From a virus, in UHGV virus genome UHGV-0188446: 10,714 bases of DNA. One strand, written 5' to 3'. Shown here in pieces: positions 914 through 8,526 of this stretch. Every line of letters starts with the position of its first letter. Position 1 is the first letter of the stretch. Both the position numbers and the translations under genes were made by a program. The notes beneath the pieces were generated by a model that had not been told where the DNA came from, did not search any database, and saw nothing but the letters and a program-made list of their open reading frames with translations.

Positions 914-959
914 TCGCTTTGTCAGCGACGTAGGACGAATGTCCATTGTGAAAAGAGCG
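914..959 (-). promoter_or_regulatory. Candidate nutR: boxA-like CGCTCTTTT (complement of 951-959) and P22-type boxB hairpin TCGCTGACAAAGCGA (complement of 914-928)
   Basis: On the PR transcript just after the cro stop, CGCTCTTTT matches the boxA consensus. It is followed about 22 nt later by a 5-bp stem with GACAA pentaloop, the same loop as the nutL boxB at 3851-3865. The spacer is longer than in lambda. Confidence 0.4.
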
Positions 960-966
960 GTGTTAC

Positions 967-1167
967 TTATGCAGTTGTTTTTTTGTTACTTGGGAAGGGC
1001 TTTATTTCTTCCGCATAAACGCTTCCATCAGCGTTTATAGTTAAAAAAATCTTTCGGCCTGCATGAATGGCCTTGTTAATCGCGCTTTGATATACGCCGA
1101 GATCTTTAGCCGTCTTGGTTTGCCCAAAGCGTATTGCATAATCTTTCAGGGTTATGCGTTGTTCCAT
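967..1167 (-). CDS. cro: Cro repressor
   Basis: 66-aa [69 protein letters not shown], essentially the lambda Cro sequence as recalled. AGGAGG Shine-Dalgarno (complement of 1171-1176). Divergent from cI across the OR operators. Confidence 0.95.
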
Positions 1168-1191
1168 ACAACCTCCTTAGTACAGGCAATC

Positions 1192-1262
1192 ATTATCACC
1201 GCTAGAGGTAAAATAGTCAACACGCACGGTGTTAGAAGTTTATCCCTTGCGGTGATAGATTT
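1192..1262. promoter_or_regulatory. Right operator OR1-OR2-OR3 with divergent promoters PR (toward cro) and PRM (toward cI)
   Basis: Three 17-bp lambda-type operators: OR1 1194-1210 tatcaccgctagaggta, OR2 1218-1234 caacacgcacggtgtta, OR3 1241-1257 tatcccttgcggtgata. PR -10 is GATAAT (complement of 1192-1197) and -35 is TTGACT (complement of 1215-1220) with 17-bp spacing. PRM lies on the plus strand with the cI ATG at 1268 directly downstream (leaderless arrangement as in lambda). Confidence 0.9.
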
Positions 1263-1264
1263 AA

Positions 1265-1981
<717 letters not shown>

Positions 1982-2130
1982 TGGGCAAGGTGTTCTGGTC
2001 GGCGCATAGCTGGTGAAAAAATTATTTAATGCGGTGTATTGGCTGATTGTAACCCCATGTAACATCTTGCCGTCACCATTTCGGTGGTTAGATTTTTAAT
2101 AAAAAAAACAAATGTATAGCAAGGTTTTTT

Positions 2131-2610
2131 ATGGATAAAATTAATTACCCACCCCTGTTTGAGCCAGGGTTCCATGACATGGATGAAGCTGGATTAAAAT
2201 CGTATTGTGTCGATTGCTTTCCTTCATCATCCAGGCGAGGCATGCTATACTGTAATTTTATACAGCTACTCGAATCTATTCGAGAATTATCTGCTCAATA
2301 TGGCTGTTTTACAGAAATATGGGTTGATGGTTCATACACCACGTCTAAACCAGAGCCTGATGATATTGATATTTTGTTGGTATGTGACTATAGCAATATA
2401 AACTCAATACCTGTCATGCTTCGGGGCCGCGTCGATAATTTGCTTGACCGAAACTACATCAAACAAAACTACAAAATTGATGTCCTACTACTCATGAAGA
2501 ATTTAGATGACCCTAACTATGATTATGAGTACTGGCGTAGCTACTGGCGCGGTTGGTTTGGTTTTGATCGCAGTGAAAACCCGAAAGGGTTAGTGAGGAT
2601 TTTTTTATGA
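2131..2610 (+). CDS. Hypothetical protein with minimal nucleotidyltransferase (pol-beta superfamily) signature; first gene of a two-gene cassette in the rexA/rexB position
   Basis: ORF track 2131..2610, 159 aa. Motif IWVDGSYTTSKPEPDDIDILLVCD fits the hG[GS]-x(9-13)-DhD pattern of minimal nucleotidyltransferases. AAGG about 9 nt upstream of the ATG. Stop overlaps the next gene's start (ATGA at 2607-2610). No resemblance to lambda RexA. Confidence 0.7.
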   Translation: MDKINYPPLFEPGFHDMDEAGLKSYCVDCFPSSSRRGMLYCNFIQLLESIRELSAQYGCFTEIWVDGSYTTSKPEPDDIDILLVCDYSNINSIPVMLRGRVDNLLDRNYIKQNYKIDVLLLMKNLDDPNYDYEYWRSYWRGWFGFDRSENPKGLVRIFL

Positions 2611-3539
2611 ATGATAAATCAATGTTTAAAAATTGCGATAAACGCATTGATTTCATTCAAAAAGAAGTCGATGCAATGAAGCAAAACAAAACCAGGTCCT
2701 TTGCTGACATGCTTCTTTATCGCTCCATGGATTCTCATCTGAGCGATTTGAAGGCCGAAAAATTAAAGCAAGATAGTCGGCACCCACTTATCGATTTTTT
2801 TGAGCTGCGGCTGAAAGGCTCTGAGGTTGACTTTGGCTCTATTCCTTTAGAGCTGCTTGGGGCTATTTCAACAAATCTTGCAGCGCTAATACAAAGAGCA
2901 ACACACAAAATTGCCTCAGGCAAGGACTCAAAAAAAGTTCCCTACGACGTGAAAAGCTCCTTAAACCTCAGGCTGGCTGATTTATCCCCTGGGTCTACAA
3001 AATTGGGCGTCACCTTCTCTACAGGAATAGCAGAATTAGTAGAAACAGTACCCAGCAAGGCTGTAAAAGGCATATTCGATTTGTTGTTAAGCGATGACGA
3101 CAACAACTTCATGAATCACGTCGCTGAAATTGGATACAATTCCACTGTAAGCCTTAAGAGAATCGTAGAGGAATGCGATAAACACAACTTAACATTTGAT
3201 GCAAGTTGGACCGGTCCATTTAGTAATGGCACCAAGGTGGCAACTATTGACTCCAATAAAATTAAGTACTTGGTGAGTAGACTTACATCAACCATTTCAT
3301 CCCCTCCCATTACTGAAACGGTTACAGGCGAACTGGTCGTTCTATCCAAATATGGGAAGCTGGAGCTTGATGTTGGTGGTGAACATTTAAAGGCTTCCTA
3401 TCCGATTGAAATGCTAGATTTAATACAAAAAAAACACAAGGTCGGACAGATTGTTTCTCTTTTAGTGGAGACTACTGAGATTCACAATGATCGCATAGGT
3501 CTGTACCGTAAAAACCATCTTGTTAAATCGGTTCTTTAA
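2607..3539 (+). CDS. Hypothetical 310-aa soluble protein of unknown function; second gene of the cassette, translationally coupled to the nucleotidyltransferase gene
   Basis: ORF track 2607..3539. ATG overlaps the upstream stop. No long hydrophobic segments, no Walker motifs, no resemblance to RexB seen by eye. An Rx4H string (RSMDSH, aa 39-44) is noted but is weak evidence. Followed by an intrinsic terminator. Confidence 0.7.
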   Translation: MNDKSMFKNCDKRIDFIQKEVDAMKQNKTRSFADMLLYRSMDSHLSDLKAEKLKQDSRHPLIDFFELRLKGSEVDFGSIPLELLGAISTNLAALIQRATHKIASGKDSKKVPYDVKSSLNLRLADLSPGSTKLGVTFSTGIAELVETVPSKAVKGIFDLLLSDDDNNFMNHVAEIGYNSTVSLKRIVEECDKHNLTFDASWTGPFSNGTKVATIDSNKIKYLVSRLTSTISSPPITETVTGELVVLSKYGKLELDVGGEHLKASYPIEMLDLIQKKHKVGQIVSLLVETTEIHNDRIGLYRKNHLVKSVL

Positions 3540-3546
3540 TATCTCA

Positions 3547-3572
3547 CCCGGCCACCGAGCCGGGTTTTCTTT
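3547..3572 (+). terminator. Rho-independent terminator closing the cI/cassette transcription unit
   Basis: GC-rich hairpin cccggc-caccga-gccggg (3547-3564) followed by ttttcttt (3565-3572), 8 nt after the stop of the 310-aa gene. Confidence 0.7.
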
Positions 3573-3719
3573 GCCTACCCCCCCCCAAAAAAAACACATA
3601 ACCAATTGTATTTATTTGAAAATTAATAGATACAACTCACTAAACATAGCAATTCAGATCTCTCACCTACCAAACAATGCCCCCTGCAAAAAATAAATTC
3701 ATATAAAAAACATACAGAT

Positions 3720-3782
3720 AACCATCTGCGGTGATTAATTATCTCTAGCGGTGTTGACATAAATACCACTGGCGGTGATACT
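3720..3782 (+). promoter_or_regulatory. Left operator OL3-OL2-OL1 with promoter PL (transcribing rightward in this window)
   Basis: OL3 3720-3736 aaccatctgcggtgatt, OL2 3740-3756 tatctctagcggtgttg, OL1 3764-3780 taccactggcggtgata. PL -35 TTGACA at 3754-3759 and -10 GATACT at 3777-3782 with 17-bp spacing. Near-identical to the lambda PL region as recalled. Confidence 0.92.
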
Positions 3783-4030: not shown

Positions 4031-4414
4031 ATGACACGCAGAACTCAGTTCAAAGGCAATTCACGTTCTCGTCGTCGTGAGCGTTTAAAGGCAAAGGCAT
4101 TAGCTAACGGCGTGCTGGCCCGCGAAGAAGCAATAAGTTCAGAAGTATTACACCGCCCTACTCTAAGCAGAGCGCAGATTCAGGCTAAAGGTACTCACGA
4201 AACGCCTGAGCGCATAGAAGACGCTAAGCCAATTAAGTTCATGGCACAGGACGTGATCTGGCAACAGAAAGAATACAGACGCAATCTGGAGAGAGCGGCC
4301 ATTGTGTACGCGAATGAGTTTGGGCATAGGCAACCAGAAACTGGTGTATGTCTTCCAAATGTAGCTCTTTACGCGGCAGGCTACAGGAAATCAAAACAAC
4401 TGACAGCAAGGTGA
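4031..4414 (+). CDS. N: N-like transcription antitermination protein, P22 gene 24-like family, with arginine-rich N-terminal motif
   Basis: First gene downstream of PL/nutL. GGAGG Shine-Dalgarno at 4021-4025. N-terminal arginine-rich motif (NSRSRRRERLKAKALA). C-terminus ..CLPNVALYAAGYRKSKQLTAR resembles the P22 N C-terminus (..LLPGVALYAAGHRKSKQITAR) as recalled. Confidence 0.8.
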   Translation: MTRRTQFKGNSRSRRRERLKAKALANGVLAREEAISSEVLHRPTLSRAQIQAKGTHETPERIEDAKPIKFMAQDVIWQQKEYRRNLERAAIVYANEFGHRQPETGVCLPNVALYAAGYRKSKQLTAR

Positions 4415-4472: not shown

Positions 4473-4559
4473 ATGGAAGAAGAATTTGAAGAGTTCGAAG
4501 AGCATCCGCAGGATGTGATGGAACAATACCAGGACTATCCGTATGACTACGACTATTGA
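4473..4559 (+). CDS. Candidate 28-aa highly acidic micro-protein (MEEEFEEFEEHPQDVMEQYQDYPYDYDY)
   Basis: ATG at 4473 preceded by GAGGT 7 nt upstream; stop TGA at 4557-4559. Overlaps the ral start. Not in the ORF track because of size. Coding status uncertain. Confidence 0.25.
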   Translation: MEEEFEEFEEHPQDVMEQYQDYPYDYDY

Positions 4560-4743
4560 TAAGAATCAATGGTGTGGACAATTCAAACGATGCAATGGAT
4601 GCAAGCTGCAATCGGAATGCATGGTTAAGCCTGAAGAAATGTTTCCTGTAATGGAAGATGGGAAATATGTCGATAAATGGGCAATACGAACGACGGCAAT
4701 GATTGCCAGAGAACTTGGTAAACAGAATAACAAGGCTGCCTGA
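4543..4743 (+). CDS. ral: Ral, restriction alleviation protein
   Basis: 66-aa ORF MTTTIDKNQWCGQFKRCNGCKLQSECMVKPEEMFPVMEDGKYVDKWAIRTTAMIARELGKQNNKAA, matching lambda Ral as recalled. Same length as lambda ral (201 nt). Confidence 0.9.
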   Translation: MTTTIDKNQWCGQFKRCNGCKLQSECMVKPEEMFPVMEDGKYVDKWAIRTTAMIARELGKQNNKAA

Positions 4744-5406: not shown

Positions 5407-6087
5407 ATGGGAACTGCGACATTAATACTCGGTGAATCTGGCACCGGAAAATCAACCAGCATGAGAAATATCAACCCAGAGGAAGCAATACTTATAAAAC
5501 CAATAGGCAAGCCGCTACCATTTAAATCAAAAGACTGGCTTGCATGGGATGCCAGAGCAAAAAAAGGAACCGTAGTTACCACTGACAAATGGGACGTAAT
5601 AGTTGCTGTAATTAAGCGTGCTCACGAATACGGAAAAAGAATCGTTATTGTTGATGACTTCCAGTATGTGATGAGCAATGAGTTTATGCGCCGCTCAGAA
5701 GAAAAATCGTTTGATAAATTTACTGAGATAGGCCGCCACGCATGGGAGGTGATTAAGGCTGCACAGGATGCACCTGATGACCTGAGAGTCTATTTTCTTG
5801 CACACACCGAAGAAACCCCTATGGGGCGTGTGAAAATGAAGACTATCGGCAAAATGCTGGACGAGAAAATCACTGTCGAAGGCATGTTTACTATAGTTCT
5901 TCGCACCCTTACCCGCGATGACCAGTTCTTTTTCACCACGAAAAACAACGGTGCAGACACTGTAAAATCCCCAATGGGAATGTTTGATTCTAATGAGATT
6001 GATAACGATCTCTCTTTCGTCGATGCCACTGTTTGTGATTACTACGGCATCAATAATGTTCATCAAATTAAGGAAAACGCCGCATGA
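5407..6087 (+). CDS. Sak4-like phage recombination ATPase (RecA-fold P-loop NTPase)
   Basis: 226-aa ORF with Walker A GESGTGKST near the N-terminus and Walker B-like hhhhDD (RIVIVDD). Size and position in the recombination slot are typical of Sak4-type single-strand annealing ATPases. GAGG Shine-Dalgarno upstream. Confidence 0.65.
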   Translation: MGTATLILGESGTGKSTSMRNINPEEAILIKPIGKPLPFKSKDWLAWDARAKKGTVVTTDKWDVIVAVIKRAHEYGKRIVIVDDFQYVMSNEFMRRSEEKSFDKFTEIGRHAWEVIKAAQDAPDDLRVYFLAHTEETPMGRVKMKTIGKMLDEKITVEGMFTIVLRTLTRDDQFFFTTKNNGADTVKSPMGMFDSNEIDNDLSFVDATVCDYYGINNVHQIKENAA

Positions 6088-6671
6088 GCAACGTGATTTT
6101 TACTTATAACGAAGAAGCAGCACTGACCGCAGGGCAAGGTGGTTTTATTAACGAAACTGGTGCTCATATCATTACCATTACTGAAGCAGAACTAAAGCAA
6201 TCAGAAAAAGGAGCCAAATTTATTGAGTTTTCTGGCGAATCTGACGACGGACGTAAAATCCAATATCTTAGCGTCTGTGTTCAGAAAAATGACGGAACGG
6301 AAAACAAATTTGGCGCAAATGTCGTTCACGCCATGATGGGGTGTGCCGGGATTGGACAATTAACGCAACATATGGTTTCCGCCAGTAAATTTGTTGCTCC
6401 TGAGTTTCATGGAAAGAAAATCGGGTTAGTGCTCCAGAAAGTATTAACCACAAACAAAAAGACTGGCGCAGACAACTACCAGATGGAAATACGCATCCCG
6501 TTTATTGCACAAACAGGTCAAACCCTTAAAGAAAAGGCAGAAGGCAAGCAACCAGAAACTATCGCCAACATGGTTGCCAATCTCAAAGATAAAGACAATC
6601 GCTCTAAAAACGTAAGCCAGAATCATGCAGATGATTATGGTTACAGCCAGAACGATTACCCTGCTTTCTGA
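6084..6671 (+). CDS. Putative ssDNA-binding protein partner of Sak4 (function inferred mainly from context)
   Basis: 195-aa ORF whose ATG overlaps the Sak4 stop (ATGA at 6084-6087). C-terminal tail ..DDYGYSQNDYPAF resembles the acidic/aromatic tails of SSB proteins. Sak4 genes are commonly followed by an SSB. Confidence 0.45.
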   Translation: MSNVIFTYNEEAALTAGQGGFINETGAHIITITEAELKQSEKGAKFIEFSGESDDGRKIQYLSVCVQKNDGTENKFGANVVHAMMGCAGIGQLTQHMVSASKFVAPEFHGKKIGLVLQKVLTTNKKTGADNYQMEIRIPFIAQTGQTLKEKAEGKQPETIANMVANLKDKDNRSKNVSQNHADDYGYSQNDYPAF

Positions 6672-7169: not shown

Positions 7170-8032
7170 GCAAGATTGACTATCAGGTACTGCGTGCCAA
7201 GGCAGAAAAAGCAACGTGTGGTGTATGGTCGCTCGAATATGGAGAGAGCCGATTTGATGGTGATGATGCTCTAATTTATCGCGAGGCTGCTGGATATATT
7301 CCCATTTGCAGAATTGAAGGAGCGCATCCAGAAAGCGGTTTCGATGAAGATTTCCAAATGGAACAGCAGGCCAATGCTGAATTCATCGCCGCAGCCAATC
7401 CCGCTACCGTCTTGGCCCTGCTGGATGAACTGGAAAGAAACCAGCAATACATAAAACGCCGCGATCAGGAGAACGAGGATATTGCGCTAACGGTAGGGAA
7501 ACTGCGTGTTGAGCTTGAGGAGACAAAATCAAAACTCAACGAGCAGCGCGAGTATTACGAAGGTGTCATCTCGGATGGAAGTAAGCGCATAGCAGAGTTG
7601 CAGACAAAATCTGCACCAGATTCGTTTGGCATCATCGGTGAAAATATTCGAACACAGGATAATCGAATAACGTCAGACCCTATGTTTTGTGTGTATCAAA
7701 AGTGCGAAATTGTTGTTGATGCTGATTATGACTATGACCGGATTGTCTGGGTTGATGAAGATGGCAATGAAGCCAATAAACGCCAAAGTCGTCGTCTCGA
7801 ACTACTTCACGAAAACTTTCGAGAGCCACCAGAAAAATGGCGGCGCGTTGCTGTGAAAGATATTGATGAATTCGTTACCTGCTGTTTCACCGAACAGGGT
7901 TGTAAAGACTACCTGGCAGCCAATGGTCACAATCTTCGCTTGCCATTTATATATGTAAAAAGCGGTTTCAGGAACGCTGAATATATCGGCATAAGAAACT
8001 GGCTTGCTGGCATTCGCATCAAAGGAGAGTGA
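7166..8032 (+). CDS. Ea22-like protein (coiled-coil-containing phage early protein of unknown function)
   Basis: ORF track 7145..8032. Preferred start is GTG at 7166 (AGGAGG 8 nt upstream, GTGA overlap with the upstream stop), giving [15 protein letters not shown].... Assignment rests on position upstream of ea8.5 and general resemblance to Ea22-family proteins; not verified. Confidence 0.5.
8007..8032 (+). repeat. 26-bp direct repeat, copy 1 (ctggcattcgcatcaaaggagagtga)
   Basis: Identical to 8501-8526. Encodes the C-terminal GIRIKGE plus stop of the Ea22-like gene and carries the AAGGAG Shine-Dalgarno for the next gene. Confidence 0.9.
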
Positions 8033-8034
8033 GA

Positions 8035-8526
8035 ATGCAAATTTCACCGGTTACTCTTCGTGTTGCGAAGGCGTTTATATCCAGACATCACCGACACAAT
8101 AAACCCCCGGTGGGGCATAAATTCAGCATTGGTCTGAGAAATGATGCCGGAGAATTGATAGGTGTGGCGACAGCCGGTAGACCTGTTGCACGACATTTGG
8201 ACGATGGATTAACGCTTGAAGTAAATCGCACATGTACCACAGGAGAACGCAACGCTAACAGCGCGCTTTATGGTGCTGTCTGGCGGGCAGCAAAGGCTAT
8301 GGGTTATCAACGTTGTATTACGTACACCCAGGCAGATGAATCAGGAGCATCTCTCCGCGCAGCTGGTTTTGTTCGTGTGAAAGAGCTTCCTCCAAGAAAA
8401 AGCTGGGCGGAATCAAGCGTCGCCCTGCGGAGTAAACGCGATCCGGTCGGAAACGGTGGTGTTCCTCGTGTGCTCTGGGAAATCAGGAGAATGAGTACCA
8501 CTGGCATTCGCATCAAAGGAGAGTGA
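8035..8526 (+). CDS. Hypothetical protein (163 aa), possibly GNAT-like fold; inserted gene bounded by 26-bp direct repeats
   Basis: ATG at 8035 with AAAGGAGAG upstream (the track starts at GTG 8029). Product MQISPVTLRVAKAFISRHHRHNKPPVGHKFSIGL.... The C-terminal GIRIKGE plus stop is encoded by the second repeat copy. Fold assignment is a weak impression only. Confidence 0.5.
   Translation: MQISPVTLRVAKAFISRHHRHNKPPVGHKFSIGLRNDAGELIGVATAGRPVARHLDDGLTLEVNRTCTTGERNANSALYGAVWRAAKAMGYQRCITYTQADESGASLRAAGFVRVKELPPRKSWAESSVALRSKRDPVGNGGVPRVLWEIRRMSTTGIRIKGE
8501..8526 (+). repeat. 26-bp direct repeat, copy 2
   Basis: Perfect copy of 8007-8032. Confidence 0.9.

Follow-up and report, generated by a model that had tools for sequence, protein, structure and literature searches.

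The viral genome UHGV-0188446, a stretch of 10,714 nucleotides called the window below, carries in the rexAB slot of a lambda-immunity prophage a mobile two-gene module, catalogued as PADLOC PDC-M63 and Pfam DUF6932, that is probably a phage-versus-phage conflict module. The product of its first gene, A, is indicated by sequence and structural modelling to be a genuine, divergent minimal nucleotidyltransferase (NTase) of the Pol-beta superfamily, nearest in fold and size to the MNT (minimal nucleotidyltransferase) type. The active site of A is intact and strongly constrained, the second gene, B, encodes a partner with a predicted oligonucleotide/oligosaccharide-binding (OB) fold, and the two genes move as a unit. 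The features of A are the following, amino acids being abbreviated aa.

2131..2610, plus strand: gene A, 159-aa DUF6932 / PDC-M63A predicted minimal NTase (Pfam, PADLOC, phrog and AlphaFold2 (AF2) model)
2329..2370, plus strand: active-site motif G67-S68-x9-D78-I79-D80, near-invariant in 228 homologues
2479..2481, plus strand: D117, candidate third catalytic carboxylate, at the start of strand 116-123 in the AF2 model
2536..2565, plus strand: family signature R136-SYWRGWFGF-145, on helix 132-143 (51-sequence alignment)

Conservation of the nucleotidyltransferase motif in protein A

A first-pass annotation, made from the letters of the DNA alone, had drawn attention to a 159-aa open reading frame (ORF) at 2131-2610 on the plus strand, and the translation given there was correct. 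In the segment IWVDGSYTTSKPEPDDIDILLVCD, which covers residues 63-86 (nt 2317-2388), G67-S68 is followed after exactly nine residues by D78-I79-D80, as had been described. The pattern G[GS]-x9-13-D-h-D occurs only once in the six-frame translation of the window, and it is also found in 1-2% of composition-preserving shuffles of A; the bare GS-x9-DxD pattern is on its own only suggestive evidence. What raises the motif above chance is its conservation across 228 homologues (80 from genome loci and 148 representatives of 50%-identity clusters). The hG[GS] loop, V65-D66-G67-S68, follows the strand at 60-66, and G67 is present in 228/228 and S68 in 227/228; D78 is present in 227 (one sequence has Glu), D80 and P76 in all 228, and K73 in 221. 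G67, S68, T71, K73, P76, D78 and D80 do not vary in an alignment of 51 sequences with identities as low as 35%. The motif residues are thus essentially invariant in both sets, and the conservation on which the earlier reading had been made to depend was found.

A matched Pfam DUF6932 (PF22014) with an E-value of 1.7e-24 and 87.3 bits (cut-off 27) over profile positions 7-141 of 142, PADLOC PDC-M63A at 1.8e-41 and phrog_9194 at 2.3e-64. The position of D117 is occupied by Asp in 193 of the 228 sequences, by His in 21 and by Glu in 5; judged from canonical NTase topology rather than from superposition, D117 probably has a catalytic role, and the members with His could be a subgroup with altered metal binding or chemistry.

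The Tyr/Trp/Asp-rich C-terminal string remarked upon in the first-pass annotation, NYDYEYWRSYWRGWFGF, is indeed there (residues 129-145), and it splits into an insert and a conserved motif. The insert (approximately residues 125-135, DDPNYDYEYW) is clade-specific and is missing from non-enterobacterial homologues. R136-SYWRGWFGF-145 is near-invariant in the closer homologues, and the distant ones keep a Y-W...F-G core (Y138 in 187/228, W139 in 209/228, F143 in 183/228 with Tyr in a further 34, G144 in 193/228). This helix is possibly a partner or substrate interface, or the site of a priming tyrosine.

Predicted fold and enzyme class of protein A

The AF2 model of A, built with the 51-sequence alignment, had a predicted local distance difference test score (pLDDT) of 96.2 and a predicted template-modelling score (pTM) of 0.89. 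It consists of a helix (34-57), a strand (60-66), the GS loop, a strand bearing DxD (79-86), helices, a strand (116-123), a helix (132-143) and a strand (153-158), and in the model this order is that of a minimal NTase core. The placing of residues 60-66 and 79-86 in beta strands agrees with the earlier statement that DID lies in a hydrophobic strand. When the model was used in Foldseek searches, 2rff and MntA antitoxins were ranked at the top (7ae2_B with a probability of 0.97), with no hit at E 1e-3 and with TM-scores of about 0.3.

Pfam searches of the 51 homologues at E <= 0.1 gave matches to Polbeta (32 sequences), NTP_transf_2 (31, the best at 8.8e-6) and DNA_pol_B_palm (28). The window protein itself was below the cut-off of every named NTase family in the Pfam scan (E 0.044 for DNA_pol_B_palm), its sole passing match being DUF6932. 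The GS...DxD of the family profile was aligned on GSFRRGAESSGDMD of DNA polymerase beta (GS...DMD), at a sub-threshold E of about 0.2. Direct searches of A and B against PDB sequences gave chance matches only (flavodoxin, 0.46; LPXTG repeat, 0.0026), and NCBIfam has no family for either protein.

The assignment to the Pol-beta superfamily made in the first-pass annotation is upheld by the NTase fold neighbours, by the invariance of the motif and by the homologues that match NTP_transf_2 and Polbeta. Structure prediction, the result of which could have spoken against it, returned an NTase-like core. The accompanying argument from size, that the protein is too small for a CD-NTase (cGAS/DncV-like nucleotidyltransferase) and closest to MNT-type proteins, also holds. 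A is MNT-like in fold only and does not belong to a HepT/MntA system, because its partner is not a HEPN protein.

The partner protein B

Gene B begins within the end of gene A, the stop codon of A and the start codon of B overlapping as ATGA, a sequence arrangement by which B is expected to be translationally coupled to A. Its features are the following.

2607..3539, plus strand: gene B, 310-aa PDC-M63B partner (PADLOC PDC-M63B 7.5e-45, phrog_6603 3.4e-147)
2634..2777, plus strand: N-terminal helical hairpin, residues 10-57 (AF2 helices 10-25 and 32-57)
3291..3533, plus strand: C-terminal OB-fold domain, residues 229-309, a predicted nucleic-acid-binding barrel

B matches no Pfam or NCBIfam family, and a Pfam scan of 44 B homologues gave coiled-coil noise only. 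In the AF2 model (pLDDT 83, pTM 0.71) an OB fold is predicted for the C-terminal domain. The N-terminal hairpin is a candidate docking module for A: in L057, L067, L070, L073, L074, L084 and L089 (our handles for individual loci), hmmsearch matches were confined to positions 1-57 of the B profile. Invariant residues among B homologues are R68, G71, G77, G105, G129-S130-T131, W201, S247 and N294, to which the larger alignment, of 44 sequences, adds R122. The maximum 19-residue Kyte-Doolittle hydropathy of B is 1.38, too low for a transmembrane segment.

Two ideas about B were discarded. A HEPN reading, suggested by R39-x4-H44 in the window protein, was rejected when the motif was found not to be conserved, and an argument from charge (acidic antitoxin, basic toxin) was dropped because the B family is mostly acidic. 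Separately, residues 62-146 of B (window 2790-3044) weakly match the N-terminus of PADLOC PDC-M32A (376 aa) at E 3.4e-5, a resemblance that hints at a domain common to two candidate systems, PDC-M63 and PDC-M32.

Pairing of A and B, partner variation and decay

The pairing of A with B is near-obligate. At nine of nine hand-checked loci of distant A homologues, an overlapping or abutting gene of 309-319 aa lies downstream, and these genes are true B homologues with 21-25% identity. Among 80 A-seeded loci, from species-representative genomes, 75 have a B-profile match directly downstream on the same strand; of the others, two lie on contigs that end early, one is a fragment, and two (L030 and L093) have no B match. 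The taxa concerned include Enterobacterales, Vibrio, Bacteroidota, Acidobacteriota, Verrucomicrobiota, Nitrospirae, Desulfobacterota, Clostridia and a Parcubacteria metagenome-assembled genome (MAG), among others. The B profile is specific, since 79 of its 80 matches among 3,841 ORFs are to the ORF right after A. Conversely, in each of the 47 B-seeded viral contigs that extend far enough upstream, B is preceded by a full-length A with GS..DxD, a figure that is weak owing to the close relationship of these loci. A further occurrence of the pair is in the Streptococcus satellite Javan304 (MK448417; L096, 2938-4306), with an hhalign probability of 81% over 241 columns. The Javan304 record annotates only a 68-aa coding sequence at this place; a full 159-aa DUF6932 ORF (GS..DxD, YWQGQFGF) can be read there and overlaps a 300-aa B-like gene, so that this Gram-positive phage satellite carries the pair in under-annotated form.

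At a few loci the partner differs. The DUF6932 gene is followed in L030 (5445-6452) by a gene for a 336-aa tetratricopeptide repeat (TPR) protein and in L093 (5456-8023) by one for an 856-aa ResIII/DEAD helicase with an EcoEI_R_C domain, neither of which is B. In L084 (5462-6496) the partner contains TPRs and only the N-terminal 55-60 residues of B are recognisable, and some other variant partners match over B residues 1-245 only. Because TPR or helicase partners, or a fusion to ImmA/IrrE, replace B, the comparison suggests that NTase A is the constant, catalytic element and that the body of the partner is exchangeable and serves in recognition. The fusion, of DUF6932 to an ImmA/IrrE (Peptidase_M78) metallopeptidase, is seen in two cluster representatives (P0325 and P0337), in which the RSYWRGWFGF motif is degenerate (YF..KFG / YW..KFG); the surroundings of the fusions, which included a short contig, were uninformative, and no B-like neighbour was found there. 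In Streptococcus phage MissE1 (L095, 2929-3960), an ImmA/IrrE peptidase is encoded two genes downstream of the DUF6932 gene.

Decayed copies were found with either gene affected. A is intact and B split in two isolate genomes (L037 and L059) and in several MAGs. In E. coli KL53 (L146, 1779-4248), the IS4-like insertion sequence ISVsa5 lies in the 5' part of A and B is intact; the remnant of A, 111 aa, is annotated as a DUF6932 protein, and the locus is a natural A-disrupted allele. The loci with intact A and split B argue against A being a toxin neutralised by B, and the other models discussed below are not clearly separated by the decay patterns.

The module occupies the rexAB slot of lambdoid prophages

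The window comprises the immunity and early-left region of a lambdoid prophage, in reversed orientation relative to the standard lambda map. Its layout around the module is as follows.

Minus strand: O-type replication gene (end only), cII (Pfam Phage_CII 1.5e-32) and cro
1268..1981, plus strand: cI-type prophage repressor, HTH_3 + Peptidase_S24 (Pfam Peptidase_S24 7e-29, HTH_3 2.6e-11)
2013..3545, plus strand: portable A+B cassette, in place of lambda rexA-rexB (lambda homology gap)
3546..3565, plus strand: intrinsic terminator hairpin of 7 pairs (6 G-C) with a T-rich tail (terminator scan)
~3719..3782, plus strand: lambda-type leftward operators (oL) and promoter pL (TTGACA-17-GATACT), driving N (promoter scan)
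4031..4414, plus strand: N antiterminator, the right-hand boundary gene of the slot (Pfam N_peptide 1.7e-15)

Window positions 953-2012 are 96.9% identical in DNA sequence to lambda cro-cI. Homology to lambda ends at 2012 and restarts at 3546, with the terminator and oL/pL, and no DNA homology to lambda was found over 2013-3545; the cassette therefore replaces rexA-rexB exactly. The terminator of the cI-A-B unit is at the position of lambda tImm, exactly where lambda homology restarts. The oL/pL stretch is 90% identical to the lambda segment with annotated operators l1-l3, the pL match being 10/12 at 3754-3782 in the promoter scan, and the N region is 96.5% identical in DNA to its counterpart in HK97 and mEp234. 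HK97 (gp49/gp48) and mEp234 (hicABC) have the same flanks as the window with different cargo. Phage mEpX1 shares with the window only the stretch 1955-3575 (99.6%), around which it has an unrelated cI and an unrelated N.

Promoter and terminator scans of the gap between cI and A revealed no convincing promoter and no strong terminator, only a weak hairpin, and a strong terminator was found 3' of B. The simplest reading is that A and B are probably co-transcribed with cI in the lysogen, as rexAB is, and that cI is probably the source of read-through transcription into the cassette.

A set of IMG/VR contigs (L098-L145) carries a 100%-identical B, with A upstream, beside at least five cI repressor alleles, some of which are only 26-42% identical to the reference repressors that they matched, and a cI-type repressor lies directly upstream in 37 of the 47 viral loci. 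These sequences indicate recent horizontal exchange of the pair between immunity regions. At other loci the neighbours of the pair are Type I restriction-modification genes and a YoeB/Phd toxin-antitoxin (TA) pair (L004), a DUF4011-type helicase (L005) or, within a mobile element, genes of anti-restriction type (L007/L008). Copies of the exact cassette are rare: 18 of 5,426 complete E. coli genomes have it, and a set of 50,697 phage records yielded five distinct phages or satellites with it. The DUF6932 family is large, with 3,679 50%-identity cluster representatives at E <= 1e-3, and nearly all of the best 150 of these are stand-alone proteins of 145-160 aa. In PADLOC terms, the window has adjacent, overlapping genes that match both models of the candidate system PDC-M63 (A 1.8e-41, B 7.5e-45).

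Some other features of the window were noted. Directly past the cassette terminator, where lambda homology restarts, 3578-3594 consists of nine C followed by eight A; homopolymer tracts of this kind are prone to slippage. Beyond N are Ral (4543-4743), an AAA_24 ATPase, Ea22, a Mom-like ORF, ea8.5 and Xis. The Mom-like ORF (8029-8526, 165 aa) matches Pfam Mom below threshold (23.0 versus a cut-off of 27.1 bits). Mom is a DNA-modification, anti-restriction family, and this ORF, in the same early-left operon as Ral, may on sequence grounds be a second anti-restriction function alongside it. The gene for the AAA_24-type ATPase (5407-6087) overlaps a 195-aa ORF (6084-6671) without a Pfam match, and the two (5407-6671), at the position of the recombination genes of lambda, may be a Sak4-like recombination pair.

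A proposed role in phage conflict

The reading that we tentatively prefer, as a call close to even, is that A and B form a two-protein NTase that acts in conflicts between mobile elements, with B presenting nucleic acid to A and a superinfecting phage being excluded as a result. A would be a competent minimal NTase that uses its G-S loop, D78-x-D80 as metal ligands and probably D117, and it has no recognisable substrate-binding domain of its own. The hairpin of B would dock A, and the OB fold would bind single-stranded nucleic acid. B would in this way recognise or present the 3' end of a nucleic acid, or an infection-specific nucleic acid (phage single-stranded DNA (ssDNA) or RNA, or host tRNA), and in the variant loci another ligand would be brought to A by the partner. 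A would then add nucleotides to what is presented, or to a hydroxyl group on a protein of the complex, and the addition would block replication or translation, with exclusion of the superinfecting phage, or addiction, as the outcome. The physical contact between A and B, the substrate, the trigger and the phenotype are what we infer here. A role in conflict is favoured by the exact replacement of rexAB, which are exclusion genes of lambda, by the presence of hicABC in the same slot of mEp234, by the finding of one identical cassette beside at least five repressor alleles, by the terminator 3' of B and the lack of a strong terminator or promoter between cI and A, by the restriction-modification, TA or helicase genes next to other copies, and by the match of both proteins to PADLOC candidate models.

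Several observations weigh against this proposal. In the only published experiment, deletion of PDC-M63AB from E. coli NILS69 gave no defence phenotype with ten virulent double-stranded DNA phages, a panel that is narrow for a prophage-borne system and that was used in one wild host. The conserved residues of the OB domain of B (S247, N294, E242, K251 and E253) are not the aromatic and basic set of a typical ssDNA binder, and A and B are acidic in most family members, unlike the expectation for nucleic-acid enzymes. OB folds also serve in protein-protein contacts and oligomerisation. The argument from partner swapping is drawn from a handful of loci, and for L030 the homology to the hairpin is weak, with an hhalign probability of 21%, while for L093 it falls short of significance. 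Sequencing errors could also account for the split B genes.

The main rival, which we consider unlikely, is a TA logic of type VII, according to which B is a growth inhibitor (clamping ssDNA or RNA through its OB fold, for example) and A is its enzymatic antitoxin. A would add AMP or another nucleoside monophosphate to a conserved hydroxyl of B (S130, T131 or S247, for instance), and B would be set free once infection or a loss of ATP brought the modification to a halt. The NTase-first order and tight coupling are those of mntA-hepT (PMC13000451), MntA antitoxins are among the structural neighbours of A, A is acidic like many antitoxins, and B does have invariant Ser/Thr residues. A TA system, hicAB, sits in the same slot in mEp234. 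B, however, has neither a HEPN fold, nor a conserved Rx4-6H motif, nor a recognisable toxic domain, and the TPR and helicase partners of the variant loci are unlikely toxins. The survey of decayed loci can be quoted on both sides: A-only remnants exist, while every B-seeded locus keeps an intact A (47/47, weakened by the close relationship of these viral loci); yet the insertion in E. coli KL53 removes the 5' end of A and leaves B intact.

The most far-reaching reading would make the pair a new type of two-protein nucleic-acid NTase immune module, in which the partner, whether of OB-fold, TPR or helicase type, would catch a nucleic acid or protein specific to infection. The NTase would then tag or extend the nucleic acid, or make a Y138-primed oligonucleotide that is read by the OB fold as a guard signal. 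We consider this rather improbable; if it were true, the mechanism would be one not described for any MNT-type enzyme.

Two further explanations appear quite improbable, and to the same degree. In the first, a short oligonucleotide, perhaps with Tyr138 as its primer, is produced constitutively by A and held by the OB fold of B, and a phage nuclease or single-stranded DNA-binding protein that removes the oligonucleotide switches B on. Such a guard has a precedent in Hailong, in which the Tyr-primed poly-dA made by HalB gates HalA (PMC13434031), and the signature helix of A bears a highly conserved Tyr-Trp. An OB fold is suited to short ssDNA, and the module would be expressed in the resting lysogen. 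Against this, B has no transmembrane segment or identifiable effector domain, the gene order differs from that of Hailong, and A may make single transfers rather than act as a polymerase.

In the second, the pair serves the prophage's own biology, for example in sensing or tuning the lysis-lysogeny decision or in processing phage DNA ends. Such a role would explain why the pair is attached to repressor genes (37 of the 47 viral loci have one immediately upstream) and why DUF6932 is fused or close to ImmA/IrrE anti-repressor peptidases; the negative result of the lone defence assay also fits. It is opposed by the many copies outside prophages, in ordinary chromosomal or defence-island contexts, and by the slot itself, which is a known cargo position (rexAB, hicAB, HK97 gp48/49). 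The cassette also moves independently of immunity type, which argues against co-adaptation with any one repressor. Least probable of all is a MenT/AbiEii-type arrangement, in which A is an NTase toxin that modifies tRNA 3' ends and blocks translation and B is the neutralising antitoxin: A is acidic, it has no Pfam or PADLOC match to AbiEii/DUF1814 or MenT at E <= 1, the gene order is the reverse of antitoxin-first, and at least two isolate genomes and several MAGs have a split B beside an intact A, a state that would be lethal if A were an unneutralised toxin.

Significance and comparison with known systems

Minimal NTases are understood mechanistically almost only as the MntA antitoxins of HEPN toxins. 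DUF6932 is a large sister family with members in numerous bacterial phyla, in temperate phages and in a phage satellite. Its active site is conserved as strictly as that of any enzyme, and the MNT-like NTase is accompanied by an OB-fold partner that lacks a curated family and is unlike HEPN. The genes are already catalogued, as a DUF and as a PADLOC candidate, and the gap is a functional one; our literature search found no published characterisation of DUF6932 or PDC-M63, nor of a defence system that combines an NTase with an OB fold. Identification of the substrate would show what an MNT-type enzyme does without a HEPN partner, and would settle whether PDC-M63 serves in defence, in TA-like addiction or in prophage regulation. 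The slot of lambda rexAB is one of the best-studied cargo positions in phages, and, since E. coli K-12 supports the growth of the carrier phages (mEpX1 and a relative with lambda immunity), isogenic lysogens allow a direct test of the module.

HepT/MntA is the known system most like the pair. MntA, like A, is a small stand-alone NTase of Pol-beta fold whose motif is GS-x(9-10)-DxD. In both cases the NTase gene is the first of two closely coupled genes in an operon carried by mobile elements, and MntA proteins are among the nearest solved structures in the Foldseek search. The spacing differs slightly, the motif being GSx10DxD in MntA (PMC13000451) and GSx9DxD in A. The partner also differs: in HepT/MntA it is a HEPN RNase with RphixxxH and an adjacent acceptor Tyr, and is oligoAMPylated, whereas B is not a HEPN protein.

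The likeness to lambda RexAB is one of position (two genes between cI and the terminator and pL) and of probable mode of expression. No sequence or predicted-fold relationship of A or B to RexA or RexB was found, and a PADLOC scan of A and B gave no Rex match, only the PDC models and a marginal match to DrmC. RexB is a membrane protein, and neither A nor B has a membrane segment.

AbiE/MenAT and the CD-NTases of CBASS belong to the same superfamily as A and have a role in phage defence. Pfam and PADLOC gave A no match to AbiEii/DUF1814 or MenT at E <= 1, and AbiE/MenAT operons are antitoxin-first, whereas the NTase gene comes first in the A+B module. A CBASS CD-NTase has about 300 aa with a cyclase C-terminal domain, as against the 159 aa of A, and acts with an effector that has a signal-binding domain; the size and architecture of A and B are wrong for this, and no model matches.

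Hailong, a defence system, likewise has two genes, and its partner protein reads the nucleic acid that the NTase produces (PMC13434031), which offers a possible functional analogy for an NTase joined to an OB-fold protein. HalA, however, is a transmembrane ion channel that forms a tetramer (PMC13434031) and B is soluble, and no HalB or Hailong entry is among the listed PDB neighbours of A. The pair is neither HepT/MntA, AbiE/MenAT, CBASS, Hailong nor RexAB; it belongs to Pfam DUF6932 and PADLOC PDC-M63, both of which are names without an assigned function.

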